Shown: piece after piece, positions 19,404 to 48,815 of the stretch
How positions within the stretch are numbered: the stretch's first letter is position 1
Layout: every line of letters begins with the position of its first letter
Assembly: GCA_032718475.1 (NCBI GenBank)
Contig: JAUCBJ010003973.1
Location: forward strand, 29,077 to 93,076
Source of the DNA: Nemertoderma westbladi
Taxonomy: Eukaryota > Animalia > Xenacoelomorpha
Reading direction: 5' to 3'
Length of the DNA stretch: 64,000 bases
Notes under the pieces: model-generated
Database searches by the model: none
Seen by the model: the letters and a program-made list of their open reading frames with translations, nothing else
What the model was told of the DNA's origin: nothing
Made by a program: the position numbers and the translations under genes

Positions 19404-19689
19404 GTCGTCCAATATATTGGACTGAAGGGGGTGGGAATGAGGGCGAGACGCCCTTCCCACACATAAAAATAAAAAATAAAAAAAAATAATAGATATTATG
19501 AAGATGGTAGATAGAGATAGAGATAGTGGATAGATAGAGGGTAGATAGGATAGATGGTAGATTGTAGATAGAGATAGTGGATAGATAGATGGTAGATAGA
19601 TGATAGATAGATGATAGATAGTAGATATTAGTAGGTAGTTAGAATTATGCACGTCGGAAGGGTACAATAATGTACCAACGTACCTAGTT

Positions 19690-26252: not shown

Positions 26253-27893
26253 CTAAATCCTCGTCCGATTCCAACTGTCGACAACGCTAGGAGGAAGTCG
26301 AAAAGGTAGGACCGTTCCGTCCGTTGACACCTCGCTCTCTGACGTCGTTTGAATCCTAATGGGTTCAGTCAAAGCGTATCCTGTCCCTCCGCGTGGTTCT
26401 CTAGCAAGGGAAACCGTGCCCCGAGTCATCCGGATTTGCGACTTCGATGTCGTCCTCTCGGCGACATTCACTATCTTCTTAATCTCTTGTCCGGCCTTCT
26501 GGGCTTTGAGTATACGAAATTGCTGATCATCCTGTGGGTGACGCGTCTTCTCCGCTAACGGCGTGGCCTTGAAGCCAGTCTCACGCAAAACGTCGGTCTC
26601 GTCCAGAATGCACGAGGTTACGCGTTTGTGATAAAATGCGCTCCGGTATGCCCAAGCTATCGAATGCCAGGCTCCTCGATTCCGCTGTTCAACTCGCAGT
26701 TTATCGAATTCTCCGGCGGTAATCTTGTTCACCACAGTTTGAAAGTTCCAAGTATTCTTGTTGTCCGGGTGCACTTGTAAGAAATAGTCCCGCACAACTT
26801 TGAATCCACTGTCCAATGGCAATATATCCAATACCTCCAACAATTCATCGTACTGAGGCATAGCCGATACATATCCTTCCTTTGACATTATGAGAGGGTT
26901 TACGGCCCAAAATCCCAAATGTGCTCTCATAGGGAAGCGGCGTCGCTGCGTCGATACATGCTCGTCTGCTAGATCCTCCCAATGGTCGAATAATTGTCGA
27001 ACGATTTTAACTGACATGTGCTCATAGGGGACGTCTCTAAGTTGACATTCAGATGCCCTATGGCCCTTAATATTACAATAAGTACACTGCGCCACGAAAC
27101 GCCAGCAAGTGTAGAAAGTGTGCGAACGTTGATCCCCGCACCAGTTGCATACTAAATCCGGTAGAGATATGTGCTTCGCTCCGCACTTCTTTGCGTGATG
27201 GCCAGTTGCTCCACATCTGCCACAAATAGTGTTGGCAGGATACCAAACTCGCTCATAGATGAGGTCTCCGATGGGGCGAGCGCTACCGTCCACGTGATAA
27301 TTCTCATCATCCGGGTCAGTCGGTATGTTCGTCTCCGTAGGTTGTACACAAACCATGGCATCGCTTTTCTCTAACTCGCGTATCTCAGTTTGCGTCTTCC
27401 TTGGAAGGTTCTCTTCTATTTCTATGAGTTGCCGTAACGGTTCGTCTATTAGCGCCAACTCGGTCGGATCCACATCGTCATGATGGGCGGTAGGCTCGCG
27501 AGCCTTCCAGGATCCTTCCGGGCGTTCGAATTCCGCGTGGCGTTCCCCGTCATAGGGTACTAACGTTAACATCGACGGTCTGTCGACTAGACTTCCCGCG
27601 TGAGTGAGATAGACGTCCCTGAAAACGCTAAGTCCTGCTCGCGTGAAAACTTCGCAGTGCGCATCGGTGTTATAAAAGGGTTGGAGAAATCGTCGGAATA
27701 CATCAGTATGCGTCCTTCCTCCATCGTAAAAGGTATGTCCTTCGCCAAGACATAACGGGTGTCGCTTTAAGGTTCTGGATACTACGTCCGCGATGAAACA
27801 AACGTTAACCGAAGATTCTATCGCTAAATAGTATTGCAAGATTATCCGCGGAGGTGAAGTAATCGCCCAATACACGCAACCTCGCCACTTCAA
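26253..27893 (-). pseudogene. ORF3 C-terminal part: ExoIII-like motif and three CCHC zinc knuckles, frameshifted from the middle part
   Basis: YYLAIE; CGRCGATGHHAKKC, CNWCGDQRSHTFYTC, CTYCNIKGHRASEC; then FDHWEDLADEHVSTQRR...LGFW, matching FEEWADVGAMTRQR...WGFF in ORF 37413-39956. Confidence 0.75.
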
Positions 27894-29594
27894 CTGTGAC
27901 TCGACTCGTTTACGCCGGGGGTATCTCCCTCTCCGTATACGTCCGTGTATTTGTTCCTCTTACTCTCCTTGTAATCCCAACTGAACATTAGATATGAGAT
28001 ATAACCCGTCCCAGTTTTTAGCGTGTTATACTCTCTAAAGTATCCTTGCTCAATAGCCCAAAGCAACAATGGTCTAGTATCCACGTATGGCGTAGGCAAT
28101 CGGTCCTCTTCCGTGGGCATCCCTGCAAAGTCGCTAATGAGGTCATCCCGTACGCCGGATCCGATCTTGACGATGCTCTTATCCAACACAACGTCTCGCA
28201 CGGCCTTTGGCAACATCCTAGCTTCTATGCTACAAGCCAGGTCCATGGATTTAACTATCCGTTTTATCATCGCGTGTCTTTGCGTCGTTCCTTCCGGCAT
28301 AGGCATCTTCCTATCACTCCTCTGTCGGCTGAAGACATGCAACACGCCATCTGGTGCTCTAATCTGTATCGTCTTTGAAGTGAGGCTTTGCTGATGGCTT
28401 CCTCCTTCATTATCATAAAACATATATCCATTCTCTTTCAGAGATCGGCTAGTCACGTCCCAATCGTCGAGTAAATCGTCGGTAGGGTTCCAAATTCTCC
28501 CAATCGACTTTTCATCATCGAAACTAATAGGTTTACCAGTCCAATTGGTCGCGATATCGGTGTCGGTCTCAAACGTCCCAACTCCGATCCATAATCGAAT
28601 CGTTTTCGTCAGATATCCTCGCAAGATACAAGGTGCGATATCCGTCCCCGCGCGATCCACTTCCTTAACGTCCGTGATATGTGGAGGCACGTTGCGTACG
28701 ATTTTTTGAACTATTACTTTACGCAACTCGGTTGATTCTAACACATCACCGAAGGTGACCGATGGGAGGAAATCCAGGTTCGAGATGATCTCCGGGTGTT
28801 CAACTATAGGGATCTCGTAAGTTGTCTCCTTCCGGGTCGGTATACTAATAGGAAAACTAGTTGGTCTCGCAACCGGTACTATTGCTCCAGTAGAATGGGG
28901 CTGAGGTTCTCGCGTCATCTCAACGTGAGGTATCTGTAGTCTCTGCGACAAACGCTGAGCAAAGGTGATACTATCGAAGAGCTCGGGTGTCATCTCCTTG
29001 GGTTCGGTTTGATCGTGGGATATCCAATAGAATGGTAGGCTCGCGAGCCTTCCGCCGAACTCCTCGATCTCGCCTTTCTCGTACGCCTTGTACGCCCTGT
29101 AGAGGCTCAAAGCTTCCCGCTTCTCTTGTGTCGACTTATTAGACTCGTCCACTACCATGCTGTAGACGTCTGGTTCGACTAATTTTGGTTCGTAAATAAC
29201 GATCTCACCCGCGTTCGGTCCACTCATCTTAAATGAATGATACGGATTTGTCAAAGGGTATCCGCCTTCTTGGTAACGTAGACTTTGGTGGTGTGAACAT
29301 CGCGCTAATATCGGCTCGGGGTTCTCCGAGTTCAACCGCATAGGAATCGCGTTGTCTTGCTCGCGCATACACGCTCCACATTTATAAAACAGTTTGTATA
29401 CGGAAAACGCGTCCTTGGTCTCTGGATCCGCTCCTCGAGCGCGTCTATAAAGATGCATTCCTTCAAATTCGTCTCTAGCTGCAGGTAAAGGTTCGTTTAC
29501 CGTCAAATATTGCAGCGTATGATACAATCGGCGTATTTCGGTGTCTGGATCCTCGCAAATGTCGCTAGCGTCGCATAACGCATCGTAGGGATAT
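27890..29594 (-). pseudogene. ORF3 middle part: DEDDy-like 3'-5' exonuclease domain (ExoI and ExoII)
   Basis: GYMFYDNEGG (DxE), QIRAPDGVLHVF, LPKAVRDVVLDKSIVKIGSGVRDDL resemble WRN/EXD2/RNase D-family motifs. The first ~92 aa of the listed 661-aa ORF are only antisense LTR sequence. Confidence 0.75.
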
Positions 29595-29599
29595 AACGC

Positions 29600-30140
29600 T
29601 GTTAGCTTATTCAATCCCGCCAACACCCCATAAAGTTGTAAGCCGATAAGCAATATTGGGAGCCGCGAGATTGGGCAATTAACCAACTCGCGCCATCCCA
29701 ATAAGAGTGGGAAGGAAGCACACAATAGAGGGTCAGGGGCCAAACCCCTAACCCAGAGAGAACACAGTGGAGTGAACGGGAATACTCCACGGGGCGCCAA
29801 CAAGGGTATCAACCAATCAGAGGGGGGAATGGCATCGATTGAGTAGCAATTAGGCCAACCGTGCAGTATAGCCACTTGGCAGTAATATTACCTATTCAGT
29901 TATCACAGTGCAGCAGTGCTAGCGTAGGGTACAGCCAATTAGTTTAGTTAGGGGATCACGGGACTTTAGTTACCGTATCCCGCCTTGTACACATTTACAA
30001 TATATCCATATCTTATAACCTCCTATTATACACCGAACTTCAGAACTCAGTCACTTTATTTCATCCTTATACACGGCGGGGACGCGTGGACTAAATTACC
30101 ACAACCGGATAAATCGGGATCCCCCTTGGATCCCGTCACA
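29600..30140 (+). repeat. 5' LTR of copy B
   Basis: Direct repeat of 40667-41207; gtatag (about 29866) with an initiator-like TCAGTT about 30 bp downstream. Confidence 0.97.
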
Positions 30141-30245
30141 GTAACTAAATCGGTGCTGCTTCCCCAGCTAAACTCAGTAACTAAAGCCAGCTGCCGCCCT
30201 AGACAAACTCTATAAACACTAGCCACCGAAATCTGCAGAAGAGAG

Positions 30246-32774
30246 ATGAGCGATTCGGGCGAGACACCACCGCGGACCCCGGACGAAGACCTAACGATCC
30301 GCGAGGCCGCGACCAAACGATACAGGCCCACGACGCCGGAGCCATCGATAGTGGGCGGACCGGAAGTCGAGGATGAGGGGGGCCTGGAGCTCGAAGCCGA
30401 GCCAAGAGAAAGGGAGAGCGAGAAGGAGGGAGAAAGAGCGGAGTCGACACGGGACGGAGAAAGGCGCGCCGATGTCGCCGGCCAGCTACCGGCCGAGGGC
30501 GAGGAGCGGCCCACCGAAACGGTGACGGTGGGGCCGACGGTGCGACGCCGGACGCGAAGAGACGGAACAAAGATCGGTACCGATGTCGCCGGCCAGCTAC
30601 AGGCCGAGGGCGACGGACGGCCCACCGGAACGGCGACGGTGGAGCCGCCGGTACGACGTCGAACCCGGAGGGAGAGGGGAGAAGTCGGCGACGAGGACGT
30701 CGGGGTTTCTGAGCGACTCCGACGCGCTTACATCGCAACCCGGAGGGTACTAAACGATGCTAAGAAGAAAGGGGCGAAAGTGGACGAGGTGAGACTGAGG
30801 AAGCGACTAGGTGAGTCGGATAAACACTTTAGTTATCTAATACACTTTGAGCAGAGAGAGCTAGCCGAAACGAGGGCACATGAGATTGCCGTGGAACTAT
30901 TGGAACTGTGGGAGCGTGGGGGTATGGAACCTAGTGTAGGGCCAGTGTACATAGGGCCATACTCGGTCGATGCCCGGGGAATAAAACCGGTGGGTTGGAG
31001 GGGACTCGAAGGGGGCGAATCCGAGGTTAACTCCGAGGATTCGGCCTCGTCGGTCGGAGAAAGTTCCGGGAAGCGGGGGAGAGCCAGTGGGTCGGGAAGG
31101 CGGAGGGAATCCGTTACAACCGATAAGTCTGCTACATCCTCCGTAAAAGAAAGACGGGTGAGAGAGATAGAGGCCAGACACCGTCTCAATCTAGCGGTGG
31201 AAGCTAATAGAGAAGTAGGTAGACGGCTAGAGGAGGGGAGAGTGATGCTAGAGAGGGAAGCGGTGTCGATTAAAGAGTTAAGGGAAAGGGGCGAAAGGGC
31301 CGCGAGGAACCTTAGGGAGTATGACGAGATAGAGTTGAGGGAAGAGAGGGAACGTGAGGCGAGAAAGGAAAGTGAACGCAGGGAGCGTGAGGCGAAAGAG
31401 GAAAGTGAACGCAGGGAGCGTGAGGCGAGAGAGGAAAGTGAACGCAAAGAGCGTAAGGCGAGAAGAAGAGAGGGGATTGTGAGAGAGATGGAATTGGTCG
31501 AGCAGAGAGAACGGGAGTCTAGCGAGAGAGTAGCAAGGGAGGAGAGTGGCAGAATAGAGTTAGAGAAACGGCGAGAGAAACTCCTAGAGTATACAGCTGT
31601 ACACGCGCGCGATTTGGAACGGGCGCGGGCGGGAGTGTCTGAAAGCGGGGCCGGCTCGAGTATTTTTGAGGAGCCGAGGGCCGTAGATACATTTATTAAT
31701 GCCCCACTGACAGGGACCGCACGACAGACCCAGAACTGGTGTGACCGTACGGGCGGGGGGGGTAATAATAATGATGGTAAAGTAGGCGTTGTTAATATTG
31801 ATAATACCGTATGGGACAACACTAATCAAACCTTTATTGCAGGAAATACTTTACCTAGTGGTAGTAATTTAAATTTAAATCAGAACAATCCTAGTGTTAA
31901 TGTAGGAGATAATCCTAATATTGATGTAGTTACGCAAAATAATTCAAATAATCAAAATAATAATCCAAATTCGAACCTACAAAATAATTTAAATAACGCG
32001 ATCACGCAAAATAATTCGAATAATTTAAATAATGACCTAAATCCGAATTTACAAAATAATTCGGATAACGTGGCCGCCCAGAGTAATACAAACGATTTTG
32101 TTTTGGGCGAGCAAATTAATTCCGTTTCCAATATGGGTGTTATTAGTGTAGACACGTCGGGCCTACGTAACCAGGGAGCAGAGGGCCTGGTAGGCCACGT
32201 AGTTAGTAGACAGGGGGCAGAGGGCCTGGTAGGCCGCGTAGTTGGTAGACAGGAAGTAGAGGGCCTGGAAGGCCACGCAATAGCAGAGGGAGAGGCGGAG
32301 GTGAATAGACCCGACTGCGGTAGGGTTGATGTGTCGACTAGAGAGACATATAGTAGTGGGGCGAGAGGTAGCGAAGTTAGATGTAGCGAGTGGGGGGGGG
32401 CTACGAGCACCCCACGACAGAAAGTTAGCGGCGAGAGGGGGGGGGGGCAGAGAGTGTCCCACAGCCGTCAGCGGACAATGCGAGGGCCGAACAAGGTAAA
32501 CCGCAACAACCGGCGACGGAAAGTAATAAGGGGATTGCGAGTATCCCCAGCGGCGTGCGATCGAGCAGAGAAAGACAGGTTGACGTCGCGAGAGGGCAGA
32601 CGGAGCGTCGAGCCCGATCAGAGGAGGAAAGAAGAACAGTGGGGTTTAACCGGGAGGTCGACGAGAGATCTCGTGAGCGGGAATATTCCACTGATAGGAG
32701 AAGAGAGGAAGAGAGTAGTAGAAGTATCGCCGCAAACGATAGAAGAGCGAGGACGGACAGCGAGCCGTCGGTAG
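30246..32774 (+). CDS. N-terminal part of copy B Gag (Glu/Arg coiled-coil-like and Asn-rich segments); true frame probably shifts at the G11 run 32437-32447
   Basis: ATG 106 bp after the LTR; the homologous copy C reads ERGGAENVPQ...EEGRRTVEFNRE in one frame, matching the next ORF after this G run. Confidence 0.7.
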   Translation: MSDSGETPPRTPDEDLTIREAATKRYRPTTPEPSIVGGPEVEDEGGLELEAEPRERESEKEGERAESTRDGERRADVAGQLPAEGEERPTETVTVGPTVRRRTRRDGTKIGTDVAGQLQAEGDGRPTGTATVEPPVRRRTRRERGEVGDEDVGVSERLRRAYIATRRVLNDAKKKGAKVDEVRLRKRLGESDKHFSYLIHFEQRELAETRAHEIAVELLELWERGGMEPSVGPVYIGPYSVDARGIKPVGWRGLEGGESEVNSEDSASSVGESSGKRGRASGSGRRRESVTTDKSATSSVKERRVREIEARHRLNLAVEANREVGRRLEEGRVMLEREAVSIKELRERGERAARNLREYDEIELREEREREARKESERREREAKEESERREREAREESERKERKARRREGIVREMELVEQRERESSERVAREESGRIELEKRREKLLEYTAVHARDLERARAGVSESGAGSSIFEEPRAVDTFINAPLTGTARQTQNWCDRTGGGGNNNDGKVGVVNIDNTVWDNTNQTFIAGNTLPSGSNLNLNQNNPSVNVGDNPNIDVVTQNNSNNQNNNPNSNLQNNLNNAITQNNSNNLNNDLNPNLQNNSDNVAAQSNTNDFVLGEQINSVSNMGVISVDTSGLRNQGAEGLVGHVVSRQGAEGLVGRVVGRQEVEGLEGHAIAEGEAEVNRPDCGRVDVSTRETYSSGARGSEVRCSEWGGATSTPRQKVSGERGGGQRVSHSRQRTMRGPNKVNRNNRRRKVIRGLRVSPAACDRAEKDRLTSREGRRSVEPDQRRKEEQWGLTGRSTRDLVSGNIPLIGEERKRVVEVSPQTIEERGRTASRR

Positions 32775-35700
32775 TCGAGGTGAGAACGGAGAGTCAGTGG
32801 GGTCGGACTCCGGGAGATTGCCGTCGCCCCGGAGGGATGCGATCCGGTGAGACGCATTACACGTCGAGAGAGGGGTACGCGATGTACCGGTACGAAGATG
32901 AAAACAGTGGAGAGGGGGGTCGAAGAGAAACTTTCCGACGGAATATACCTACCGATCGAGAATACGGTAGCCGCGGGGAGGATTATTCGAGAAGAATAAA
33001 CTTCGATCCCGAGCAACATATGCAGACTGTAGGGCATACTGTAGGTCTTACTGCACATACCGTAGGCCATACTGAGAGAGGCAATGTAGGCGATAGGATA
33101 GCGCGGACAACGGGATTAAACCCGGAAGTCGCGGAATACATACCGGCGAGTAGGCCAGAAGCTGATAGGCCTATAGCGGTACCGGCACAGCAGTATGACT
33201 ACAGCATGCAGGGACATAACATATACCCAGGGGAGGGGGGAATTATTGCGGATAGGTGTATGGGCCCCAACATATTAACATCAACCCCAGTACCAAACAT
33301 ACCGGTGGGGGGGGGACAGGGTGACATTCCCCCATCACAATATCAACAATATACCCCAACAGGAACAAGAACAACGAGACCCCTAGATGAAAACAGGTCG
33401 TGTGATACAGACATATGGAGGGGGCCGCTACCCCCGATGACATATCCGAGTCAGAGAAGATCAAGAAATAGGACGGACGAACCGCACCAGACAGGGGAAA
33501 CTATACAGCACCCGTCGAATCCATTGGAAGCGCAGGCAATGGGGATGGCCACGTTGATCGATGCGTTGAAGACAAGGATCGAACTACCACCCGTGGAACC
33601 ATTCAAATTCGATGGGAGTAGGCCGGAAGAATACCTACAGTTTCGGCGAATGTATAGTAACGAAATACTAACAAAAAACTTGACGCAGGCGGAGTGCCTA
33701 AAGTATCTACAAGTGTACACGGGAGGCCCAGCATACGATATCGTGAGGCAATACCAGGGAATAGAGGGCGGCTTCACGACAGCATGGCGGGCACTGGATA
33801 GAGAATACGGGCACCCGGCCAAGATCATCAGGCAAACGCTGAGAGGCATAACATCGGGTGGCCTACAGGATAATCCCGTTAGCATTAAGACGTTTGCTAA
33901 CAAAGTCGAGAAGGCGCTGATCGTGCTGAAGACGCTAGACGCGCCATACGAGCTCAACGCGTCCAATAACATTACCACGATAGCGCAGGCACTACCGAGC
34001 TGGCTGCGCAACAAATGGAGGAAGATCGCTTTCTCCACCCGAGACAAGAAGGGTGCGGAACCAGGTTTAGAAGAAATGTCAAACTTCTTAAATTACGAGG
34101 CTGAACTAATAACGGACCCAGTCTATAGTGAAGATAGCCTGGGAAAGGCACCAAAGACAGATCACTACAGGCCCAAGCCAGAGCACAATACATCAAACGC
34201 ATTGCCGAGGCTCAGACAATCATTGCCATACGCAGCGACGCAGGGGACTACAAGTCCACAGACAAACGAAGATAAGACAACATCAAGGGACGGACAGGGG
34301 AACAATAACAACATAAATAAACATAACCCCAGTACGTCCAGTAGGCCAAACCCAGTCAATAAGAATAGTAGGGACTTTGGTACGAATATAACTGCAATAC
34401 GCAACGCATTGTATAAAGAGGGCTACGACCCAAAGAGCAAATGCCAGTTACACGCAAATGCGCTTCATAAAACCATGAACTGCAGGTACTGGCAGGCGCT
34501 ACCGAGGCAAGACCAGATAGATTACGCGTCGAGCAATAAAATCTGCTCGCGATGTGTAAAGAGTGGACACAAGGCCAGGGAATGCCAAGAGAAGCCGGTC
34601 AAGTTTGGCCAAAGGAGAGGCCAGACGATGGCAACGAGCACAGTAGGGGCGAAGAAGAGAGGAACAGTGCTACTTGGAATAGTACCAGTACGAGTGATCG
34701 GGGAAGGCAATCGATCAGTAACAACACTAATGCTGGTTGATAGTGGAGCTGCCTTCACACTAGTTGAGGAATGGATAGCCGAAGAAATAGGGTTGAGAAC
34801 GAGGCCAAGCAGGATGGCGGTGACAACCATCTCTAGCAAGGACGAGGTCCTAGAGATGAGGACAGGACGGTGCGCAATTGCAGCAGTGGCACCAGGATGC
34901 GATTATGGGGCAACCATCGACCCCATCCAAGTAATAGAGTCAATTAACATCAATGCCAGGCGGCCAACCAACATCGAGGTCGAGCAATACAAATTCCTGG
35001 ACAACATTGACTTCTCAATCCCAGACGTGGACGTTAGGAAGGTATCCATCATAGTAGGCATGGACTGCCCAACGGCCCACGAGAGAATGCAGACGGTCTT
35101 CGGCGAAGATAAGCAGAGCGACCCGGTGGCCATACTAACGCCATTCGGGTGGACGCTGACAGGCCCAATTAAGAGTAATATACCATTCCATGTGTCCGAG
35201 AGTTCAGGATGCATGGTGCCAGGAACTGACGAGATAGAGGAGAGGCCAGAGATGGGCAATAGTGGTAGACAGCTAGAAGTAGAAGCAACACCAAGAGAGT
35301 GGGCGGAGGAGAATGGTATGGATGCAGAAGATCTAGAGACGATGGGTTGGAATAAGGGTCCCAGCAAGTATCGGTATGGAGATGGGGAGCAGCGGACGGT
35401 GGAGTGTCGGGAGGACAAACCGGAGAAGTGCCCGGTGGAGTGTCCAGAGGAGCGCCCGGAAGAGACGCCGGTCCGGTTGAGAGGCATACCGACAAGGGGG
35501 AAGCCGAGTAAGAATACAAGATGGAAAGGGAAAGGATGTGAGACGATCAGACCAGGGGCAGAGAAACCCATGAATAAACATATGGTGGACAAAGGAGGCG
35601 GGAGAGTAGGAGGCGTGCTGCGTACGCACGCGGAACTGACAGAGTGCGAGGGGGCATTACATGGGCAGACGTCGTGTACACCGAAGGACGAACGGGGGTC

Positions 35701-36040
35701 GTTGAAGCCTTTAATGCCAGCACACATATTAAGGGGGAGGCCAGCAGAGGTGGCATCTAAGATTAAGGAGAAGAACAGGGGCGGCATTATACCGCCGGGT
35801 GACACGTTGAAGGGTGGCACTTTGCCGCCAAGGGACGACCACGAGATCAGAAACATAAATAGGAGACAGCATTTGCCAAAACAGGAGAAAAGACCACCTA
35901 TCGAATTGACAAGGAGAGTGGAGCGAAGAATTAGAGAACCTATAGGGGGGCAGTGGGAGAGTTGCCTGCTGGAGGAATCACCCCTTGGGTCGCTAAGTTG
36001 TCCAACAGGTTGGACTGGGATGGAAGAGTTAGATCCGTAA
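32555..36040 (+). CDS. gag: BEL-type Gag core, zinc knuckle, aspartic protease and integrase-tail remnant (1161 aa)
   Basis: PFKFDGSRPEEYLQF, AWRALDREYGHP, LPSWLRNKW (BEL gag-like); CSRCVKSGHKAREC; LMLVDSGA protease; LTPFGWTLTGP; ECEGALHG...PLMPAHILRGRP resembles the integrase end EIEAILNTRP...LTPAHLL; no YxDD. Confidence 0.85.
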   Translation: MRSSRERQVDVARGQTERRARSEEERRTVGFNREVDERSREREYSTDRRREEESSRSIAANDRRARTDSEPSVVEVRTESQWGRTPGDCRRPGGMRSGETHYTSREGYAMYRYEDENSGEGGRRETFRRNIPTDREYGSRGEDYSRRINFDPEQHMQTVGHTVGLTAHTVGHTERGNVGDRIARTTGLNPEVAEYIPASRPEADRPIAVPAQQYDYSMQGHNIYPGEGGIIADRCMGPNILTSTPVPNIPVGGGQGDIPPSQYQQYTPTGTRTTRPLDENRSCDTDIWRGPLPPMTYPSQRRSRNRTDEPHQTGETIQHPSNPLEAQAMGMATLIDALKTRIELPPVEPFKFDGSRPEEYLQFRRMYSNEILTKNLTQAECLKYLQVYTGGPAYDIVRQYQGIEGGFTTAWRALDREYGHPAKIIRQTLRGITSGGLQDNPVSIKTFANKVEKALIVLKTLDAPYELNASNNITTIAQALPSWLRNKWRKIAFSTRDKKGAEPGLEEMSNFLNYEAELITDPVYSEDSLGKAPKTDHYRPKPEHNTSNALPRLRQSLPYAATQGTTSPQTNEDKTTSRDGQGNNNNINKHNPSTSSRPNPVNKNSRDFGTNITAIRNALYKEGYDPKSKCQLHANALHKTMNCRYWQALPRQDQIDYASSNKICSRCVKSGHKARECQEKPVKFGQRRGQTMATSTVGAKKRGTVLLGIVPVRVIGEGNRSVTTLMLVDSGAAFTLVEEWIAEEIGLRTRPSRMAVTTISSKDEVLEMRTGRCAIAAVAPGCDYGATIDPIQVIESININARRPTNIEVEQYKFLDNIDFSIPDVDVRKVSIIVGMDCPTAHERMQTVFGEDKQSDPVAILTPFGWTLTGPIKSNIPFHVSESSGCMVPGTDEIEERPEMGNSGRQLEVEATPREWAEENGMDAEDLETMGWNKGPSKYRYGDGEQRTVECREDKPEKCPVECPEERPEETPVRLRGIPTRGKPSKNTRWKGKGCETIRPGAEKPMNKHMVDKGGGRVGGVLRTHAELTECEGALHGQTSCTPKDERGSLKPLMPAHILRGRPAEVASKIKEKNRGGIIPPGDTLKGGTLPPRDDHEIRNINRRQHLPKQEKRPPIELTRRVERRIREPIGGQWESCLLEESPLGSLSCPTGWTGMEELDP

Positions 36041-36214: not shown

Positions 36215-36915
36215 AATTAGCTAAGAGGTACGTAGTACCTAGTTAGTTAGTTAATAGGTACGTAGTACCTAGTTAGAGTTAGTTAGTTAATAGGTACGTA
36301 GTACCTAGTTAGAGTTAGTAGGTACCTAGTACCAATAGTTAGAGTTAGAGTTAGAGGGTACGTAATGCCTAGTTAGAGTTAGAGCTAGAGAGTAGGTAGT
36401 ACCGATAGAGTTAGAGTTAGTAGGTACGTAGTACCAATAGTTAGAGTTAGAGTTAGAGGGTACGTAATGCCTAGTTAGAGTTAGAGCTAGAGAGTAGGTA
36501 GTACCGATAGAGTCAGAGTTAGTAGGTACGTAGTACCAATAGTTAGTTAGAGTTAGAGGGTACGTAGTACCGATAGAGTTAGAGTTAGTAGGTACCTAGT
36601 ACCAATAGTTAGAGTTAGAGTTAGAGGGTACGTAATGCCTAGTTAGAGTTAGAGCTAGAGAGTAGGTAGTACCGATAGAGTTAGAGTTAGTAGGTACGTA
36701 GTACCAATAGTTAGTTAGAGTTGGAGGGTACGTAGTACCGATAGTTAGAGAGTTAGTAGGTACGTAGTACCTAGTTAGAGTTAGAGTTAGAGGGTACGTA
36801 ATGCCTAGTTAGAGTTAGAGTTGGAGGGTAGGTAGTACCGATAGAGTTAGAGTTAGTAGGTACGTAGTACCTAGTTAGAGTTAGAGTTAGAGGGTACGTA
36901 GTACCACTAGTTAGA
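36215..36915. repeat. Tandem array of gttaga / ggtacgtagtacc units between gag-PR and ORF3
   Basis: Short units with higher-order repetition visible directly. Confidence 0.95.
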
Positions 36916-37412: not shown

Positions 37413-39956
37413 GTGTTCGGAATGGCGAGTAAGCTGATCAGGAAGAGAAAGGCGGAGTCGGGAGGAAAAGAAATATTGGTGGATTTCACCGAAAGACACC
37501 CGGAGGAGAAGACGAGAGGATACTACGAGAGGTTGGAAAGGGGTCACGCGGCACGAGCGCTGCAGGATCACTTCCGGGAGGCGCACGAACAGCGGTTGGT
37601 CGGGACCTACGGGACGCTGTCGCTGGACAACGCGATCTTCCAACACTTCCACTACGTGGTGAAAGGAGACGAGGCGAAGTTCGGGATTCCGAAGTATCCG
37701 AGGGAGTCGCCAAGGAAGGACTGGAAAAGATTCATAGAGTCCGTCAACAGAGGAGGATATATGATCCTAGATGACGAGGGAACCGTGGAAGACGAAGCGG
37801 GTTCGAGACGAGGAACGGCAGGGTCGGCCAGGACCATACTCTTGCATTTGGCAGCGCCAAATGGGGACATCTTCTTATTCGACCTAGGGACGTATGGGAA
37901 GAAGGACGGGCCGAAATTAGATCGACTACCGAAAGCGGTACAGGTCTTAGCAAGAGAGAAGTCGACGACGAAAGTGGGATCGGCGATCCGCGAGGACGCG
38001 GAGAGGATCATCGGTCCGGACGCCACCAACCTCCTGGATATGCAGAAAGTCTTTATGGCTATGACGGCACCGGATGGATTGGGGGTGGTCGAGAACTCAG
38101 GCCAATGCGGGGCGGTGGCGATGGGCCAATTATTGGGGCTCGTATGCCACAAACCAATGGATTGGGGGAAGTTTAGGGAAGAATACGGAGCAGAACTAGC
38201 GAACTCGCTGAAGTGGGGAGCGAGACCGGGAAAGCAGGAGGTATATCAGTTTCGCAGAGGAGCGATAAAGGTATATCAGAAGCGATATATCCTGCAGGAG
38301 GACTGGATGATGATAAGTTTACTTAACTTATTCATGACCGTAGTTATCGAAAGAGAACCAGGGGCATTTCTGTTATCGGGATCACCCCTAAGCTACAGGA
38401 GAGCCTTTAAAGTGGCCTTTGACGGTCTGGTAGACCACCCGGGGCTGAAGGGCGAGTCGGTGTACTACAACAGCCGACATCTGGTAGACGGGGAGACAGA
38501 CACACCGTATCAGAGATGGGAGCAGCTAGAGATGGATAGACGGGAAGCAAAGCGACTGGAAGAAGTCGCTAGACGGGAGAGGATAGAAGCAGAGGAGAGG
38601 GAAGAGGAGGCCAGGGCACAGAGCTACGGCTTCGAGGAACAGGCGGGTCTGGACGAGCTTCATTGGACTTCGTCAGGGAGTTCGGGGGAGTCTCTAGGGA
38701 GAGAATTGGGATGGACGGTGGGATCGCCGAAACAGTCGACGTCGGGGTTGCACGCGGTGCCCATACCAGCGGGCGCCGAGGGCGACCAACCGCCAAGGAA
38801 GTTAAGGGAGCTAGAGGGATGGAGAGTTACGGGCGAGAGCCAAGGCGGGAAGGGACATAGTGGATCCACCGAGATACCGGGATTGGAGACACTACCGGAA
38901 GAGGAGGACGACGACGACGAGTTCGGAGAGATACCGCCCATCGAGAGGATAGGCCACTCGGACACGGACTGGGTTGGCGGGAGGGTGGTGACGGCCAGTG
39001 GGGCGAGGGCCTTCTGGAACAGATCCGGCAAGCGGACCTGGGTGCACGAGGGGCCGGCGATGGATTTCGCGGGGAGCACCATCAGGTTGGGCGAGCAACC
39101 GGGGACGGCACCACGGATAGTATTCGGGGAGACGATGCCCGAGAGGGGCGGAGAGATCGACGTAAACAGGGAGAGCAACGTGGAGAAGTTTGCCTACCAG
39201 CGACTCCATAGACCGCGGAGATCGCTTGGGACGAAGGACGAGGTGGGACGCGAGACATTGGTACTCGGCTGCGACTACTGTGGGAGACAGACCCATCGGG
39301 AAAGCAGCTGCCTATACCGGTTCCAACGGGGAACCTTTTGTCTCTATTGTAGAGAACCGAGTCACAGGATGGGGGCGTGTCCACGGTTGCATAACCGATG
39401 TCCAAAGTGCCACTTTCGGGGACACTACGGACGCGAGTGCGACTGGATGAGCGACGAGGAGAAGTTCACGAGGTTCGAGGAGTGGGCCGACGTCGGGGCC
39501 ATGACGCGCCAGCGCATGAAGGCCCAAGAGTTCAAGTGGGGTTTCTTCCTCATAAACCAGGAGACCCACATGGAAATCATAAAGCGAAGGTTACCGTTTA
39601 CCTATCAAGAGGTAGCTACGGCGGCATCGTTCGCCGGAGTTATGAACACGCAACGGTACCTGGACAGGTGGACACCAGAGAACCGGAGGGAGTTTAGGGA
39701 TTTCTTGGCGGAACACGTGCCAAAGGCAATGAAGATGATTCTATGGGACGCCACACGAGGGAAACAACCAGGCCATTCTGAGGGGCCACCGGCGAAGCGG
39801 TATCGGGCTTTAATAACACCAGCGCCCAAGGAGCCGACGACCGGGATCAGCAAGGAAGTGGCAGCAAAGGTCCGGAAACAGAAAGCGGACGATGCCAGAG
39901 GAGCAGTGATAACCAAGAAACGGGCCAGGGAAGAGGACGTGAGGAGGAACAGATAG
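37413..39956 (+). CDS. Intact ORF3 of copy B: DEDDy-like 3'-5' exonuclease, acidic linker and three CCHC zinc knuckles (likely start MASKLIRKRK, about 844 aa)
   Basis: GYMILDDEGT (ExoI), LLHLAAPNGDIFLFD, LPKAVQVLAREKSTTKVGSAIREDA (ExoII), LLDMQ, YILQED (ExoIII-like); CDYCGRQTHRESSC, CLYCREPSHRMGAC, CPKCHFRGHYGREC; basic NLS-like stretches at both ends. Confidence 0.8.
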   Translation: MFGMASKLIRKRKAESGGKEILVDFTERHPEEKTRGYYERLERGHAARALQDHFREAHEQRLVGTYGTLSLDNAIFQHFHYVVKGDEAKFGIPKYPRESPRKDWKRFIESVNRGGYMILDDEGTVEDEAGSRRGTAGSARTILLHLAAPNGDIFLFDLGTYGKKDGPKLDRLPKAVQVLAREKSTTKVGSAIREDAERIIGPDATNLLDMQKVFMAMTAPDGLGVVENSGQCGAVAMGQLLGLVCHKPMDWGKFREEYGAELANSLKWGARPGKQEVYQFRRGAIKVYQKRYILQEDWMMISLLNLFMTVVIEREPGAFLLSGSPLSYRRAFKVAFDGLVDHPGLKGESVYYNSRHLVDGETDTPYQRWEQLEMDRREAKRLEEVARRERIEAEEREEEARAQSYGFEEQAGLDELHWTSSGSSGESLGRELGWTVGSPKQSTSGLHAVPIPAGAEGDQPPRKLRELEGWRVTGESQGGKGHSGSTEIPGLETLPEEEDDDDEFGEIPPIERIGHSDTDWVGGRVVTASGARAFWNRSGKRTWVHEGPAMDFAGSTIRLGEQPGTAPRIVFGETMPERGGEIDVNRESNVEKFAYQRLHRPRRSLGTKDEVGRETLVLGCDYCGRQTHRESSCLYRFQRGTFCLYCREPSHRMGACPRLHNRCPKCHFRGHYGRECDWMSDEEKFTRFEEWADVGAMTRQRMKAQEFKWGFFLINQETHMEIIKRRLPFTYQEVATAASFAGVMNTQRYLDRWTPENRREFRDFLAEHVPKAMKMILWDATRGKQPGHSEGPPAKRYRALITPAPKEPTTGISKEVAAKVRKQKADDARGAVITKKRAREEDVRRNR

Positions 39957-40666: not shown

Positions 40667-41207
40667 TGTTAGCTTATTCAATCCCGCCAACACCCCATAA
40701 AGTTGTAAGCCGATAAGCAATATTGGGAGCCGCGAGATTGGGCAATTAACCAACTCGCGCCATCCCAATAAGAGTGGGAAGGAAGCACACAATAGAGGGT
40801 CAGGGGCCAAACCCCTAACCCAGAGAGAACACAGTGGAGTGAACGGGAATACTCCACGGGGCGCCAACAAGGGTATCAACCAATCAGAGGGGGGAATGGC
40901 ATCGATTGAGTAGCAATTAGGCCAACCGTGCAGTATAGCCACTTGGCAGTAATATTACCTATTCAGTTATCACAGTGCAGCAGTGCTAGCGTAGGGTACA
41001 GCCAATTAGTTTAGTTAGGGGATCACGGGACTTTAGTTACCGTATCCCGCCTTGTACACATTTACAATATATCCATATCTTATAACCTCCTATTATACAC
41101 CGAACTTCAGAACTCAGTCACTTTATTTCATCCTTATACACGGCGGGGACGCGTGGACTAAATTACCACAACCGGATAAATCGGGATCCCCCTTGGATCC
41201 CGTCACA
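40667..41207 (+). repeat. 3' LTR of copy B
   Basis: Direct repeat of 29600-30140, preceded by the PPT. Confidence 0.97.
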
Positions 41208-41437
41208 AACGCATTGTATTCCGCGCGTAATTCCTCCGTTCTTTTGTTGTATGCGTCCAACCGCTGTCGCGTAACATTCGGGTCCGCCTTGGATTTAGCG
41301 AGCTTGGCCGTACTCCTAGCCATACTCTCCACTCCAAACACACTAAAGTTTTTAGGTCCATAACGATTGAATGGCGCCTGGTGCTCCTGTTCTTGCGTAA
41401 ACCCTTGACGTAACTCTTTATACATCTTCTCCGCCAT
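41208..41437 (-). CDS. N-terminal 76 codons of ORF3 of the BEL/Pao element, cut off by the nested insertion
   Basis: MAEKMYKELR...RAEYNA joins in frame to LYPYDALC at 29594 once the insert and one AACGC copy are removed. Confidence 0.8.
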
Positions 41438-42170: not shown

Positions 42171-45100
42171 CTATTTGCTAATATTGGGTGGAGATTTGTA
42201 GTCTCCCGTCTCGTTTCTAGTCTCCTCAAGGAGCACGAGACGTTGTACAGGTCTGTCTACGGTACGGCCGTCGATAGTCCGTACAGTAACTGTTCTCACT
42301 ATACCAGATGTAGGGTGCGTGGTCAAAATGACTCCAGTCAGCCAAAACCGTCTTCTCAGATTAGCTTCAGCCAATAAAACATGGTCACCACGTTTTAAAC
42401 ACCGGGTATTTAGATACCAGGAAGTTCTGGTTGAAATAGAGGGCAAATAATATTTCTGCCATATTTCCCAGAATTTATTTGCAAGTAATTGAGTGATTTT
42501 CCAAGCCTTGTTGCCGTATCCGTCACTATCAACGGGTACCGAAATGGGCAACAATGTCGTCGGCGCCTGCATAAGCAGGTGCGCTGGTGTCAAGGCAAAC
42601 TGTACGTCGTTATTGTCTGGGATCAAAGCGATCGGTCTGGTATTTAAGATTGCTTCGATTTCTATTAGTAACGTCGTCAGTTGGTCGTCTGTCAAGATGT
42701 GTTGCGTCGGTACGACTTTAGCCATAGCTGTCTTTATTGAGCCAATCAGCCTTTCCCAAACGCCGCCTCTCCACGGACTGTCTGGAGTATTGAAAAACCA
42801 AACAATACGGTGAGGACGTAGTTCCTCGGAAATCTGGTTTTGGTCCAATTTTCTCAAAGCTCTGGTTATCTCGTTCCGTGCACCCACAAAGTTTGTCCCT
42901 TGGTCGCAGTATATGGATTTGACCAATCCACGTCTAGCGATAAATCGCCGTAAGGCTAGGATAAAGGCATTGGTGGACAAGTCTGTCACTCGCTCTATAT
43001 GGACAGCTCTGCTGGCCATGCAGGTGAAGATCAATCCCCAACGTTTTACCTGTACCCTTCCGCGTTTCGCGATTATGGGTCCAAAACAGTCTATCCCTGT
43101 CTCAGTGAAAGGGGGTCTAAACGCCTGTAATCTCGCTAATGGTAGTTCACTCATTTCTTGGTGTCCTATCCTCGCGTGCACCTTCTTACAAATAATACAG
43201 TTCCGTGTTACCGAACTCAGTGCCTTACTAGGTCTAATCAGTACAAACCTCGAGCGTAAGTGTGATAGACAGTGGTGTCTACCTACGTGTTTGAGTTGTA
43301 CATGTGCGTCCAGTATCATAGCGCGCTGTAATTCATGGTGTTGCGGTATGATGATAGGATACCTAAAGTCAAGTGCAAAGTCGATGTTTTGGAGTCTGGA
43401 CTTGTGACAAAGTAAGCCCCGGTAAATAATCGGACTCCAACTCAAAATCGGTGAAGACTTAATCTGTTTACCTTGTTTGATCGCTGTGAACTCTCGTGCG
43501 AAATATCGCAATTGATAATGTCGAATGATATCAACTTCACAGTGGCCAATTTCCTTTAAGGTAAGTCTTCTAGGAAAGTCGCGTTTGCCTCTGGCATATT
43601 GTCTCAATCGTTTGAGCCATGCTAACTTGCGGCACGCGTCAGTCCATGATCTAGTTAGGTTTACTATCCTGTCAACGTAAGTGTTAGTGACGTCATCGGG
43701 TAAGGTGTAGTCGTAATGTGGATACTTGTCTGGACTTGGTAGGCCCACGGGCCTTCCGGTAGGTTTGTCTGAGTCCCCAAGTACGTCAATCTCTACGGTC
43801 TTACCTTTGCCGTCCGCACCTAATGTGTCGACTGGCAGTAATGGTTTCAACTCTACAGTGTCAGTGTGTTCCTGTGAGCCTGTAAGCTTCCTAACCTTAG
43901 TCACACGCTTACCTGTAGGTAAGTCAAGTACCTTCTTCGAGCGGAGTGTAATCCCTGTGGCCACATCTCTGTCGTCCAAAGAAGTCAAATTCGGTACGTC
44001 TCTAAAAGTCCGCTCCAATGGGTCTTCTAATGGAGTGTCTAGTAGACAGTCTGGTGAAGCGTCTGGTGAACAGTCTGGTGAGACGTCTGGTGAGACATAG
44101 CGCGGAACATCCGGCGAAATGTCCGGTCGTCGGTCCCAAAGTCTGTCTAGCGTAACTTCCGTCAGAAAGTCTGGTTCAAAGTCTGGTGGACAGTCGGTCG
44201 AGATGTCTGGTGAACAGTCTGGTGAGACGTCCGGTAGACATTCTGTCGAGAGTTCCATCAAACAATCTGGCGAAGAATCCGGAGAACAATCTGGTGTCTC
44301 TTCTGGTGAATAGTCTGGCGAGTAATCTGGTGAACAATCCGGCGAAACGTCTGGTGAAATCTCCCGCGGAACATCCGGCGAAGGATTCATACAAGCGTCT
44401 GGTCGAGTGTCTGGCGAGACGTCTGGCGTAATGTCAGGTCTGGCGTCCAGGTCATCAGATTTCGTCCGTCCTTTTTTCCTCTTGACCTTGGCGTTGGCTT
44501 TCGCTTTAGACTTGACAACCTTGTCGAGTTTTATCTCGGCACCCTCTGGTATGGTGTTGGTTGTCGCGTCGAATAACGGTGGCCATTCGTCTGATGGTCG
44601 CTGTAGGAAATCGGGTCCTCTAAACCAAAAGGATTTATTGTCCGGTTTACAAAAGTCAAGTGGTTGCATCCCCCGTGACGCGATGTCAGCTGGGTTCAGC
44701 TTCCCTGGACAGTGACGCCAATCTTGTTTGAGCGACCGGTCTAATATTTCAGCCCGTCTGTTGGCTACGAAAGTCTTGAACTCAAATGCTTCGTTGTTTA
44801 TGTACCAAAGTACCAACGTCGCATCCGTCCAATATGTGACCTTCAAGTTAGCCTCCAGCTCGCGTTGAACTAGACTGACAATATCGGTGGATATCGTCCC
44901 GGCTTGCAGCTCCCCACGAGGTACAGTCATATACTTCAATGGCATTGTTCTAGCCCTTGAAGTAACGAGAGATACATCGTAGCTGTCCGATGTCACTTGT
45001 CGTCTAAGGTATAAAGTAACCCCCAATCCATCCTTGCTAGCGTCACTAAAGCTGTGAAGCTCTAAATCGGCAGGAAAGGTGGTTTGCAAAGGAAAGTATA

Positions 45101-48100
45101 CCCTCGGTATGGTATAGTCTTGTAGGAACGTCAGTTGGGCTTCCCAGTCCCTCCATCGCTCAGCTAACTTTTCTGGGATGGGATCGTCCCATTCCAGTCC
45201 GGCTTGCCAAATGCTGCGGAGTATGATCCTGGCATGTAGGATCACTGGACTAATGAAACACAATGGGTCATACAATCGACTCATGGTCGATAAGCAAGTC
45301 CTCTTTGTGAGAGGTCTAGTCTGGTCGTTGGACCTTACACGTACCCTAAAATTGTCGGTGTTAGGGTCCCAACTAAGTCCTAATACTTTGGTCGTCGGCT
45401 GAGGTTCTAGGTCTAAGTCCAAGTCACCTCCGCTACGATCCGTCGGGTCAAATGAGTTCAACAGTTCGGGTTCGTTGGAAGCGAACTTCGTCAGGTGAAA
45501 TCCGCCCTCAGCGAGACAATCCTGGAGTTGGTGTGCTACGGTTGTAGCGCGCTCCAAGGTGTCACAACTCTTGAGGCCGTCATCCACGTAGAAATCTCGT
45601 TCCACGGTCCGAACTACTTCTGGGTCAAATTGGTCTCGTCTGTCTAATGCTGTCTGCTTCAATGCGTACATGGTGCAGTTGGGGCTGTCCCTGGCTCCGA
45701 ATACTCTTACCTGCATTTGGTAAGTTTCTGGCGGAAGTTGTAAGTTTCCGTCCGGATACCAAAGAAACCTCAAACTGTCCCTGTCCCGCTCCAAAGCCTT
45801 AATCTGGTGAAACATGGCCTCTACGTCACAGGTGAAAGCCACTTTGCGTTGTCTAAAACGCATTAGGACTCCCATGAGGTAATTATTCATATTCGGCCCG
45901 TCCATCAGTTCGCTATTCATAGACATCCCTTGGTAAAGCGCAGCGCAGTCGTTGACTACACGCACCTTGCCAGGTTTGTCCGGGTGTCGAACAAAATGAT
46001 GTGGCAGGTAATATGTCTGGTCTGTAGTTACCTCAGGATTTAACATCCTAATGGCGTATCCCTTTTGGAGATACGTCTGAAGTTGTGCGTTGTATTGCAT
46101 ATGGGCCGTCTCGTCTCGCAACAATCGCTGCCTTATTGATTTGAGTCGCCTCAAAGCAAGCGGGTAATTGTTAACGAGCTTAGGTTGTCCATTGCACCAC
46201 AACATACCAACCTCATAGTGGCCATTCGCGGTCTGGCGAATGGTATCTCTCATAATATTTAATGACCGTTTTTCCTGTTCTGACATAGCGGTCTCGTAAC
46301 TACCGGGTTCTGCTGAGTCCTGTTCCAACCATTGTATGGTCCGTTCAGTCAGCAGTCGGTCAAGCGCTGCTTGCACTGCGCCATGGTCCTCGTCCACGTC
46401 TTCGTCCGCTGCGGTGGCTAGTGTCAATGTGTCTGGTAGGCTCGCAAGCCTTCCGGTGTCACTAGTCGGCGTCGAATTGTCGTGCGGCGGTTTGACAACC
46501 TTTTGATCTGTCAGTAGGCTCGCAAGCCTTCCAAGATCAACGACCGGTGTCGAAGCCTGGTGGGTGGGGTCAATGACCTTCGGATTTTTCGGTAGGCTCG
46601 CAAGCCTTCCAAAATCCTCGTTCATCGAGTCATCCACGGCAACAACCCTTTGGCCTTCAGTAGTCAATACAACCTGGTCTACTGCAAGTAGTTGTAAGTC
46701 AGAGGTCCGTATGGTCGTGTCCAGATCGGTTACGTCAGTATCGGTGGCGTCTGCGTTAGTGACGCAAGTCTGTCGTAGTGCCGTCCGTACAATTGGACCA
46801 TGGGAGTGTGAAGGAGAATTATCTATCGTGTTAGTCAATAAACTACACGTACTTAAAACGTCGTCCTCCTGGTCACTTACCTCTAGTGAACGTATTGGTG
46901 CTCTAGTATACCAACCTATGGGAGTTCTACATGCGTAGGGGTTGCCCGCTGTAATAACAGATGGGCGTGTCTCCCATACCTGATGTAAGTTAAACTGGTC
47001 TGTCCCAATTAACATCGCAATGGAACGATAATTGACAGGACATTCCGGTATTCCAAGGTGTCGGAAATACTTACGATCTTCCGGTGATTGCTCTGGCACA
47101 GGGCCGAGCAAGTTACTAAAGTCCTTCGTAGCTGCAAAGGTCAAAATTCTTACCGGAAGTAATGAACGCTCCTCCTTGCTGTGTTCCGCTTTGGAAAGAA
47201 GAGTGTCTAAAGTTAGTTTTACTCTCGTCACAGGAATCGCTCTCTTACCATGCATGCTGCTTACAGTATACTGAGCAGTCTTACCTTGACTCAAGTCCGT
47301 AACTACGTCGGCTACTTGTTCGTCGACATAGCTATGCGATGACGCAGAGTCTAAGATGGCGTATATACGCTTGCTCCCTCGGGTTCCGGTAATCTTTATA
47401 GGAATCACGCTAAACCCTTTCAATTGGTTCTGTGTGAGGAGCGTTATCGATGGCTGTTCCTCACCTGCATGCACGTAGAAAGTGTCGTCTTCCTCCTCGT
47501 CCTCGTCCGATGATCCTGACTGATCCATACAGTCGGTATAAAAGGTACGGATCTCGCGCGGCGCACGCTCCTTATAAAGCGCGTCGCATCTAGCCGCTTT
47601 ATCGGGATGCTCTCGTCGAAAGCGTCTGGTCGGAGTATGACTGGTTGTGTGAAGCAACGCGTCATGGTTACGTCCACACAGAGAACATGTATCGTCGCTC
47701 GGGCAATCCTTCCGGACGTGTCCTGGCTTCATACATCTCCAACAGGAATCTAGAGATCGGATTTGGAGTCTCCTCTTCTCGATCCCTAACTCTTTAAAAG
47801 CGCGACATCCACGTAGTTTATGTCCGCTATGGTTTCTGCCGTTCCGCTCGCAGTATGAGCATCCCACAAAGTCCGCCGGCAACTGTTGTCGTGGCTGCGT
47901 GGTGCCTATAGGCGTCAGAACTTTAGAAGTCTCAGTAGGGGTGGCGTAAGTAACGGCTTTCGCGTTCGTCGGAAACGGTTTAGTCCGATTCGGCGCAGAA
48001 ACAGTTATCCCTTCCGCCGCGATATGGTGATCGGTATAGTTCGATCGAGTCTCGATCACGGCCTCCCGTGAAATAAGTTGATAGACATCGGTGAGTTTTA

Positions 48101-48779: not shown

Positions 48780-48815
48780 GCTGGTCCGTGATCGATCCGA
48801 CGGTTGCGCTTCGAG

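Follow-up and report, generated by a model that had tools for sequence, protein, structure and literature searches.

A gene for a predicted DEDDy exonuclease with three zinc knuckles in the env position of BEL/Pao retrotransposons

Described DEDDy systems and the cargo gene of element B

Juno and Vesta of bdelloid rotifers are Gypsy-like elements. These long terminal repeat (LTR) retrotransposons carry an RNase D-like DEDDy exonuclease as a third open reading frame (ORF3) behind pol, in the env slot; the ORF is shared with Athena/Terminon elements, and roles in 3'-end processing or silencing have been proposed for it (PMC5408684; PMC6431247). Here we describe a gene of this kind in BEL/Pao elements, found in a window of 64,000 nucleotides from Nemertoderma westbladi (GenBank assembly GCA_032718475.1, contig JAUCBJ010003973.1, positions 29,077 to 93,076; coordinates below are those of the window), in which a BEL/Pao element on the minus strand (element A) has a second element on the plus strand (element B) nested within it. 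An earlier note on this DNA had reported a BEL/Pao gene joining a DEDDy exonuclease to zinc knuckles and had mentioned DEDDy ORFs of rotifer retroelements; the gene proved real, being intact in B, broken in A and decayed in a third copy (copy C), all found by independent profiles, and the rotifer ORFs are described for Juno and Vesta (PMC5408684).

The rotifer elements carry a dUTPase and GPY/F-type integrases, whereas the carriers here are BEL/Pao, and the rotifer motif is DEED against D-E-D-E in B (Glu at ExoII is found in 2 of the 35 homologs here that keep all four acids). In the available text of PMC5408684 the term 'CCHC' is absent and knuckles are named only for gag and pol, in contrast to the triple knuckle and helical block seen here. 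Their acquisition is described as recent and repeated, as opposed to the deep co-divergence and purifying selection reported below, a comparison by description; the near-neutral intragenomic variation given in the same source was tested for env and GDSL ORFs only (PMC5408684).

RNase D of Trypanosoma brucei (TbRND; PDB 7c42-7c4c; PMC7797062) likewise has a DEDD exonuclease followed by tandem CCHC knuckles and matches our model at Z 12.3; strong binding of RNA by this enzyme depends on the CCHC domain, which also enhances cleavage. TbRND is, however, a cellular mitochondrial enzyme with four knuckles and a 28-residue linker that trims the U-tails of guide RNAs, whereas the cargo protein has three knuckles, a long linker and a helical block. 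Trypanosomatid ZFD-containing RNase D proteins are described in that text by four knuckles, a short linker and >80% similarity, while B stands at 17% identity, and the likeness is probably convergent. Other cellular DEDDy proteins (Nibbler/Mut-7, EXD2, WRN-exo, EXD1, Egalitarian) share the fold and the ExoI/II/III layout and include both active and binding-only members, but at 11-19% identity and with no knuckle module of the cargo type. Dada (DEDDy; PMC3706591) and KolobokD (DEDDh; PMC9587614) also bear a DEDD 3'-5' exonuclease; they differ in being DNA transposons with the domain in or beside the transposase and with proposed action on DNA ends.

Within BEL/Pao, the env-like third genes of Roo and of mosquito glycoprotein carriers (PMC8742986, PMC13524379) occupy the same position but encode fusion glycoproteins, in contrast to the soluble nuclease-knuckle protein described here. 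The ICTV profile of the Belpaoviridae gives only env-like third genes, in elements of 4.2-10 kb with LTRs of 0.2-1.2 kb; A (about 19.5 kb without B, with 2.3-kb LTRs) and B (11.6 kb) exceed these sizes. The word 'exonuclease' is absent from the main texts of the BEL/Pao survey PMC3118150, the Daphnia survey PMC2996953, PMC12440569 and PMC13524379, and PMC6338049 names an exonuclease only for the rotifer case. No literature report of a DEDDy gene in BEL/Pao, or of one with a triple-knuckle module, was found in a search whose scope stopped short of Repbase, subscription journals, the Terminon paper and supplements. A DEDDy third gene of an LTR element was already known, then, and what appears undescribed is its occurrence in BEL/Pao, its fusion to knuckles and its breadth.

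The cargo gene of B comprises the following features:

37422..39956, + strand: intact cargo ORF, 844 amino acids, with DEDDy-like domain, charged helix, disordered linker, three knuckles, helical block and basic tail (ORF, model)
37644..38360, + strand: predicted DEDDy-type 3'-5' exonuclease domain (D117, E119, D192, Y289, E293; profile, model)
39270..39440, + strand: three CCHC-type zinc knuckles (C617-C673; sequence motif)
39441..39731, + strand: conserved helical block behind the knuckles, without family or fold match (alignment, model)

The reading frame is open from 37404 to 39956, in agreement with the intact ORF noted earlier, but its first ATG stands at 37422, and the GTG at 37413, where that ORF had been begun, is probably not the start. 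A splice acceptor scan, run with no control, gave none ahead of the B ATG and three candidates ahead of the A start, and an Rfam search gave no match.

Catalytic-type residues of the B protein are D117-x-E119 (ExoI), D192 (ExoII) and Y289-x3-E293 (ExoIII). The acids of ExoI and ExoII align to EXD2 and both are also found in the pieces of A, and ExoIII reads Y-x3-E in A and B against the canonical Y-x3-D, with D in 29/35 and E in 6/35 of the four-acid homologs. Knuckles begin at C617, C640 and C660, the third being an exact C-x2-C-x4-H-x4-C and the first two having x5, and their Cys/His ligands are invariant or nearly so in the family alignment. Pfam gave no match in the B cargo protein, and in the family PF01612 was matched by 2/40 homologs and PF00098 by 3/24 members, always below the cut-off. 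Searching with the B exonuclease domain alone, phmmer matched 0 PDB sequences at E <= 10; word-index protein searches returned no homolog with either the B protein or a 31-row alignment, and viral contigs held no relative and 0 motif matches. The HMMER search returned 72 proteins at E <= 0.001, nearly all via the C-terminal region, and the N-terminal domain is also present in 34/75 proteins by a profile seeded from B residues 81-330.

The family to which the earlier note had assigned the motifs is borne out by profile and model comparisons. A profile of the 31-row alignment matched EXD2 at E 2.4e-11, then the knuckles of Lin28 and T. brucei RNase D (the latter at E 6.8e-6), Egalitarian and WRN, and the knuckle profile weakly matched Lin28, nucleocapsids and Air2; in the ESM Atlas, B residues 60-340 were linked to clusters with PF01612 (score 0.94; 34% of cluster members carry PF01612). 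The structure model made from the same alignment had a mean predicted local distance difference test score (pLDDT) of 62, mostly 70-90 over residues ~100-310 and 620-770 and <50 over 409-610; an earlier model from 3 sequences (pLDDT 34.5) was left out of fold searches. The best structural matches of the model from the 31-row alignment are all DEDD nucleases, with 42 Foldseek matches at E <= 0.001 and with DEDDy enzymes that act on RNA in the lead; the first is Nibbler (Z 14.0, root-mean-square deviation 3.5, 201 aligned, on the predicted model), followed by RNase D (Z 13.0), WRN (12.9), RRP6 (12.8), T. brucei RNase D (12.3) and Klenow (12.0); EXD1 and viral DEDDy proteins were also matched. 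A DnaQ-like/RNase H-like DEDDy exonuclease fold for the N-terminal domain is supported by this model, and because the top rows are tied within ~1 Z unit we name no cellular donor.

Between exonuclease domain and knuckles lies a linker of 120-523 residues (median 218) in the family, and a basic cluster follows the exonuclease domain in 62/75 proteins (no control run). For the helical block, Atlas scores stayed <0.9, a PDB profile search matched the knuckles only, and whole-model fold searches were filled by the exonuclease domain. Two other identities were considered and set aside. An envelope glycoprotein was rejected given that a hydrophobic window >=1.9 occurs in 3/75 family proteins and none in B, and that the N-terminal fold is that of a nuclease; a derivation of the knuckles from the BEL gag nucleocapsid was not accepted on its weak match (hhalign probability 17.7, E 0.0014).

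Spread, age and selection of the gene across BEL/Pao

Metagenome loci were found by a degenerate DNA motif for knuckles 2-3, modelled on B-like proteins and leaving A-like ones unsampled, which gave at least 120 loci (~300 estimated). Beyond the motif, the knuckle-module profile, itself partly built from the same loci, matches 118/120; L071 is a bacterial chance match. Flanks were taken for 80 loci, of which 44 have at least 3 kb upstream, and because 67/80 flank contigs come from one accession series they are not independent hosts. An integrase lies upstream on the same strand in 36/44 loci, reverse transcriptase (RT), RNase H and integrase together in 27/44, and a BEL integrase end precedes the gene in 38/44 once a pol profile adds L022 and L063. 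The remaining six are L005 and L052 (no pol in the 2.3-3.3 kb before the exonuclease), L008 and L032 (encoding one protein, with no pol in ~2 kb upstream), L012 (decayed, with no pol in 9 kb upstream) and L071. Peptidase_A17 was present in 4/4 pols examined by Pfam, and no other retroelement class was seen upstream among the 38 of 96 listed flanking ORFs scanned. The cargo gene is spread over many BEL/Pao elements, in the env position. One of them, L022 (5684-10931), is, beside B, a second pol-deleted element, reading repeat, gag, integrase tail, cargo gene with a stop, and repeat. As side observations, a GIY-YIG ORF lies near the L022 element, and identical 111-base ends occur on contigs L033 and L060 (and L062, L065), with L033 and L060 permuted, as from multi-copy or one-LTR circular forms.

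The earlier suggestion of an old gene kept by selection gained support. Knuckle-module distances track those of RT-RNase H over 24 loci (Mantel rho 0.91, 0/5000 permutations as high, 14/21 splits shared), and exonuclease distances track pol over 20 loci (rho 0.82, 7/17 splits shared). Among 13 locus pairs, omega was 0.10-0.56 in the exonuclease domain and 0.08-0.44 in the knuckle module (12 pairs each; one saturated). Two public runs contributed 8934 and 4949 contigs aligned to the B gene, and of the 40 variant rows with most support among 498, 33 fall inside the ORF, 25/33 being synonymous vs 23-33% expected (p <= 7e-7); none of the 12 indels listed of 56 rows lies inside the B ORF, and larger deletions within it occur at low depth. 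By these sequence comparisons the cargo gene is old, inherited with pol and under purifying selection, and the B family appears multi-copy and recently mobile.

The pols of the 24 loci are 28-35% identical to that of element A, whose nearest relatives, at 39-46%, include some with names that point to corals, sea urchins, mussels, tunicates and a fish. In unrooted trees (11 unnamed rows omitted from one), A sits on a long branch nearer to those named animal elements than to the 24 loci. Because the carrier pols are deeply diverged and A is far from the 24 loci, the gene spans deep BEL lineages, for which one old origin with losses, or more than one transfer, is possible.

Scoring of catalytic residues started from 103 ORFs that run without interruption and have 300 or more residues ahead of the module, 92 of which have an exonuclease domain; removing 17 near-copies left 75, and dropping 12 with gaps at catalytic columns left 63 scorable domains. 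All four acids are kept in 35 of these, two or three in 8 and at most one in 20, and the tree shows 3 switches between active and dead. One of the dead groups, with 11 elements, forms a well-supported clade in pol, and purifying selection still acts on dead domains (omega 0.21-0.56, 6/6 pairs). Two BEL elements, L047 (3341-6529) and L059 (6880-9648), have the knuckle module without the exonuclease domain and with an acidic, repetitive, coiled N-terminal region instead, and carriers from which the acids, or the domain as a whole, are missing keep long open pol frames. That catalysis was lost repeatedly while the knuckle module stayed points to RNA binding as the core and the nuclease as an option, and we regard an RNA-binding accessory protein with optional 3'-5' trimming activity as most likely. 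A deep-branching lineage (L010, L044, L077, L079) was also seen to have His for Tyr at ExoIII (D-E-D-H-D).

Elements A and B and the remnants around them

The layout of the window was resolved by self-comparison and Pfam. Element B, beyond its cargo gene, consists of:

29600..30140, + strand: 5' LTR (self-comparison)
30216..32774, + strand: ORF1, gag-region, low complexity, without Pfam match (Pfam)
32429..36040, + strand: ORF2, with DUF1759 gag, knuckle and aspartic protease (Pfam)
36226..36914, no strand: tandem array between ORF2 and the cargo gene
40667..41207, + strand: 3' LTR, with a hairpin and short purine tract before it (self-comparison)

The LTR pair of B is identical (541/541 bases), with TG...CA ends and a 5-bp target duplication. 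Its gag and protease are BEL-type (DUF1759 E 7.9e-11, protease E 5.2e-5; top matches BEL polyproteins), and B has no RT, RNase H or integrase, the BEL pol profile finding nothing past the protease. Element B is a non-autonomous BEL/Pao derivative; the env position that the earlier note had given the gene, between pol and the 3' LTR of full-length elements, stands as a position, but in its coding content B, lacking those three pol domains, is not full-length. The N-terminal parts of ORF1 (30216-32774) and ORF2 (32429-33000) are alike (26% over 200 amino acids, E ~1e-4), which suggests an old internal duplication or mere shared low complexity.

Element A, with its broken cargo gene, consists of:

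51936..54228, - strand: 5' LTR, 2.3 kb (self-comparison)
48816..51017, - strand: gag-region ORF, in the same frame as the gag-pol ORF (ORF list)
42171..48815, - strand: gag-pol ORF with DUF1759, knuckles, protease region, RT, Peptidase_A17 (RNase H region), integrase and DUF5641 (Pfam)
41208..41437, - strand: 5' piece of the cargo gene, to the B insertion (sequence comparison)
27890..29599, - strand: middle piece of the cargo gene, with long N-terminal extension, ExoI and ExoII (ORFs and family profiles)
26253..27959, - strand: 3' piece of the cargo gene in another frame, with ExoIII, three knuckles and helical block (ORFs and family profiles)
23103..25400, - strand: 3' LTR (self-comparison)

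The LTRs of A agree in 2288/2293 aligned bases, with TG...CA ends and a 5-bp target duplication. Its order of gag, protease, RT, RNase H and integrase, with DUF1759, Peptidase_A17 and DUF5641, fits BEL/Pao (Belpaoviridae), and PF05380 is carried by 120/120 of its listed relatives. The split of its cargo gene by B, noted earlier, is confirmed, but the gene has a second lesion as well, a frame change between 27959 and 27890 that falls between ExoII and ExoIII. In two public runs, contigs span the site where B is inserted but lack B (with loose ends at 41208 in 3 records of X1, which may itself be the source of the window, and in 1 record of X3), so the insertion is a secondary event. Two further features of A were observed: the stop codon at 48816-48818 between its gag-region and gag-pol ORFs, upstream of DUF1759, is either a lesion or a read-through site, and a 12-bp repeat (SPD-rich peptide) lies inside pol at 44014-44400, in the stretch that separates RNase H from integrase; a peptide repeat of similar kind stands at the end of ORF2 of B.

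For the primer site we used the BEL/Pao criterion of an 18-nt site for tRNA-Arg or tRNA-Gly behind the 5' LTR. No TGG adjoins the 5' LTR of A or B, the first standing at +43 and +212, and GTA follows the final CA in both (51900-51935 in A, 30141-30175 in B). Locus L013 has a TGG primer site directly behind its repeat, and L023 has TGG three bases on. In A, B and the remnant B2 (25401-25446, 40621-40666, 20982-21027), the 3' LTR is preceded by a short purine tract and this in turn directly by a hairpin of -12.8 to -17.1 kcal/mol, computed with no shuffle control.

Remnants of the cargo gene elsewhere in the window are:

55141..56886, + strand: copy C, a decayed cargo gene interrupted by stops and changes of frame (family profiles)
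57484..57687, - strand: duplicated 99-bp remnant of the exonuclease domain in the decayed B-like element B3 (sequence comparison)

Pairwise likeness of the three copies A, B and C is weak (short stretches at ~25-37%, with E from 1e-4 to 1e-7, the database being small), and their homology rests on family profiles, which were built without any window sequence. The exonuclease profile matches B, A and C at independent E-values of 1e-29, 4.5e-13 and 1.7e-4, and the knuckle-module profile at 1e-26, 3.2e-16 and 8e-6. Three knuckles had been claimed for each copy; A and B have them, but C has two complete ones by strict pattern. Neither a pol nor an LTR belonging to copy C was found in the window by BEL pol profile and self-comparison, and C stops 10 bases short of the LTR end (~56896) of B3.

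Two decayed B-like elements, B2 (~17200-21670, + strand) and B3 (~56896-63000, - strand), are 69-77% identical to B in gag-protease; B3 also keeps a short integrase tail, and sequence comparison within the window gave no cargo-gene piece in B2. On two occasions a B-like element is found in or beside a cargo gene (B within that of A, the B3 LTR end by copy C), which may be chance. The window further holds a non-LTR-type RT fragment at 9578-10531 (RVT_1 E 2.9e-33) and inverted repeats at 4099-4539 and 8340-8780 around a 10-bp satellite at 4951-7459.

What the cargo protein may do

The reading we prefer, which we hold tentatively and at somewhat less than an even chance, is that of an old BEL/Pao third gene whose predicted DEDDy-plus-three-knuckle product binds RNA of the element that encodes it and protects or trims the 3' end of that RNA. 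By analogy with the four CCHC knuckles of Trypanosoma RNase D, the knuckle module would grip single-stranded RNA, and the long flexible linker would let the exonuclease domain reach a free 3' end. Non-templated tails restrict retroelements. Lineages with all four acids could trim the 3' end, for instance of such tails marking RNA for decay, and in lineages without them the domain might serve as an end-binding clamp. Because in both A and B the gene forms an ORF of its own preceded by an AT-rich spacer, the cargo protein may be made from its own message. Pol-less elements (B, L022) have kept the gene, in keeping with a benefit to the encoding RNA.

Several observations weigh against this reading. 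Pol-less copies also lose (B2, B3) or break (L022) the cargo gene, and the selection signal on the B gene may stem from autonomous relatives aligned to the same stretch, so that the argument for action in cis is weak. DEDDy folds also act on DNA, as in WRN (Z 12.9) and Klenow (Z 12.0), rows within 1 Z being tied, and B has Glu, not Asp, at ExoIII, as do 6/35 'active' rows. Conserved acids are no proof of cleavage, because Egalitarian keeps all five DEDDy residues yet does not need them (bioRxiv 10.1101/2025.08.03.668247). The universal presence of the knuckles is partly built in, because homologs were found via the knuckle module; and the substrate, cleavage activity and expression of the cargo protein are predictions.

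Alternatively, the protein may act in trans as a suppressor or decoy of small-RNA silencing, degrading or sequestering precursors of small interfering or PIWI-interacting RNAs or competing with host factors of the Nibbler/Mut-7/EXD1 type, which we think possible but doubtful. Nibbler and EXD1, among the nearest folds, act on small RNAs (in part from PMC5408684), dead variants would fit a decoy, and the B family is seemingly multi-copy and recently mobile, with identical LTRs and thousands of contigs aligned; a trans-acting protein, on the other hand, need not be kept by pol-less elements, and Rodriguez et al. saw no clear link between DEDDy ORF and copy number and found ORF3s covered by small RNAs like other ORFs. 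Rather unlikely, in our judgement, is a non-catalytic adaptor through which unspliced element RNA would be exported, localised or packaged, comparable to CERV of Cer1 or to Egalitarian, with the nuclease incidental. It would suit the lineages in which catalysis or even the whole domain is dispensable, the basic cluster of 62/75 proteins (again with no control run), and the hairpin just before the purine tract in both A and B; moreover Egalitarian, among the top Foldseek matches, binds stem-loop RNA by its DEDDy domain, and a separate export factor is encoded by an LTR element (PMC10309623). The four acids kept in 35/63 domains at ~20-30% identity are nevertheless easier to understand with metal-dependent cleavage mattering in most lineages.

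We consider unlikely that the protein helps reverse transcription or integration by trimming the primer, proofreading or polishing the 3' ends of complementary DNA. The Dada DEDDy domains are proposed to process 3' ends (PMC3706591), co-divergence with RT-RNase H is tight, and because no TGG lies directly behind the 5' LTR of A and B their primer may be unusual. The clade of 11 with a dead exonuclease and the two carriers without the domain, however, keep long open pol frames, L013 has its TGG primer site directly behind the repeat, and the gene is a separate ORF outside the packaged polyprotein; the primer trimming proposed in the earlier note is weakened by the first two of these. Very improbable, and largely refuted, is a neutral cargo or an ordinary host gene captured at this locus: copy C, L012 and L008/L032/L072 are without pol in the upstream DNA examined, but a BEL integrase end precedes the gene in 38/44 loci, the gene co-diverges with pol, omega is 0.08-0.56 in the two domains, and 25/33 listed variants in the B gene are synonymous against the 23-33% expected. 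Where lack of a DEDD fold, neutral evolution or capture at a single locus had been named beforehand as outcomes that would speak otherwise, we find a predicted DEDD fold, a non-neutral ORF and homologs across BEL loci.

To summarize what this gene may mean, the third-gene slot of BEL/Pao, so far described as env-like, also holds a conserved soluble protein, missed by Pfam, that has accompanied pol across a very deep divergence. Little is known about the way in which animal LTR retrotransposons deal with RNA surveillance, and hardly any of their third genes other than env have been tested; here nature supplies an ORF that is intact, with clear catalytic residues, alongside dead variants and a deletion of the domain, which make the nuclease and binding roles separable by simple assays. 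Together with the rotifer cases, the gene suggests that DEDDy nucleases have been repeatedly useful to retroelements. A bolder and doubtful possibility is that a large and deep branch of animal BEL/Pao elements has from an early time carried an RNA-3'-end enzyme, an RNase D-like nuclease aimed by three zinc knuckles that would counter host RNA decay or small-RNA silencing, with dead versions as decoys; if true, animal LTR elements would have in it a gene for counter-defence no less widespread than env.

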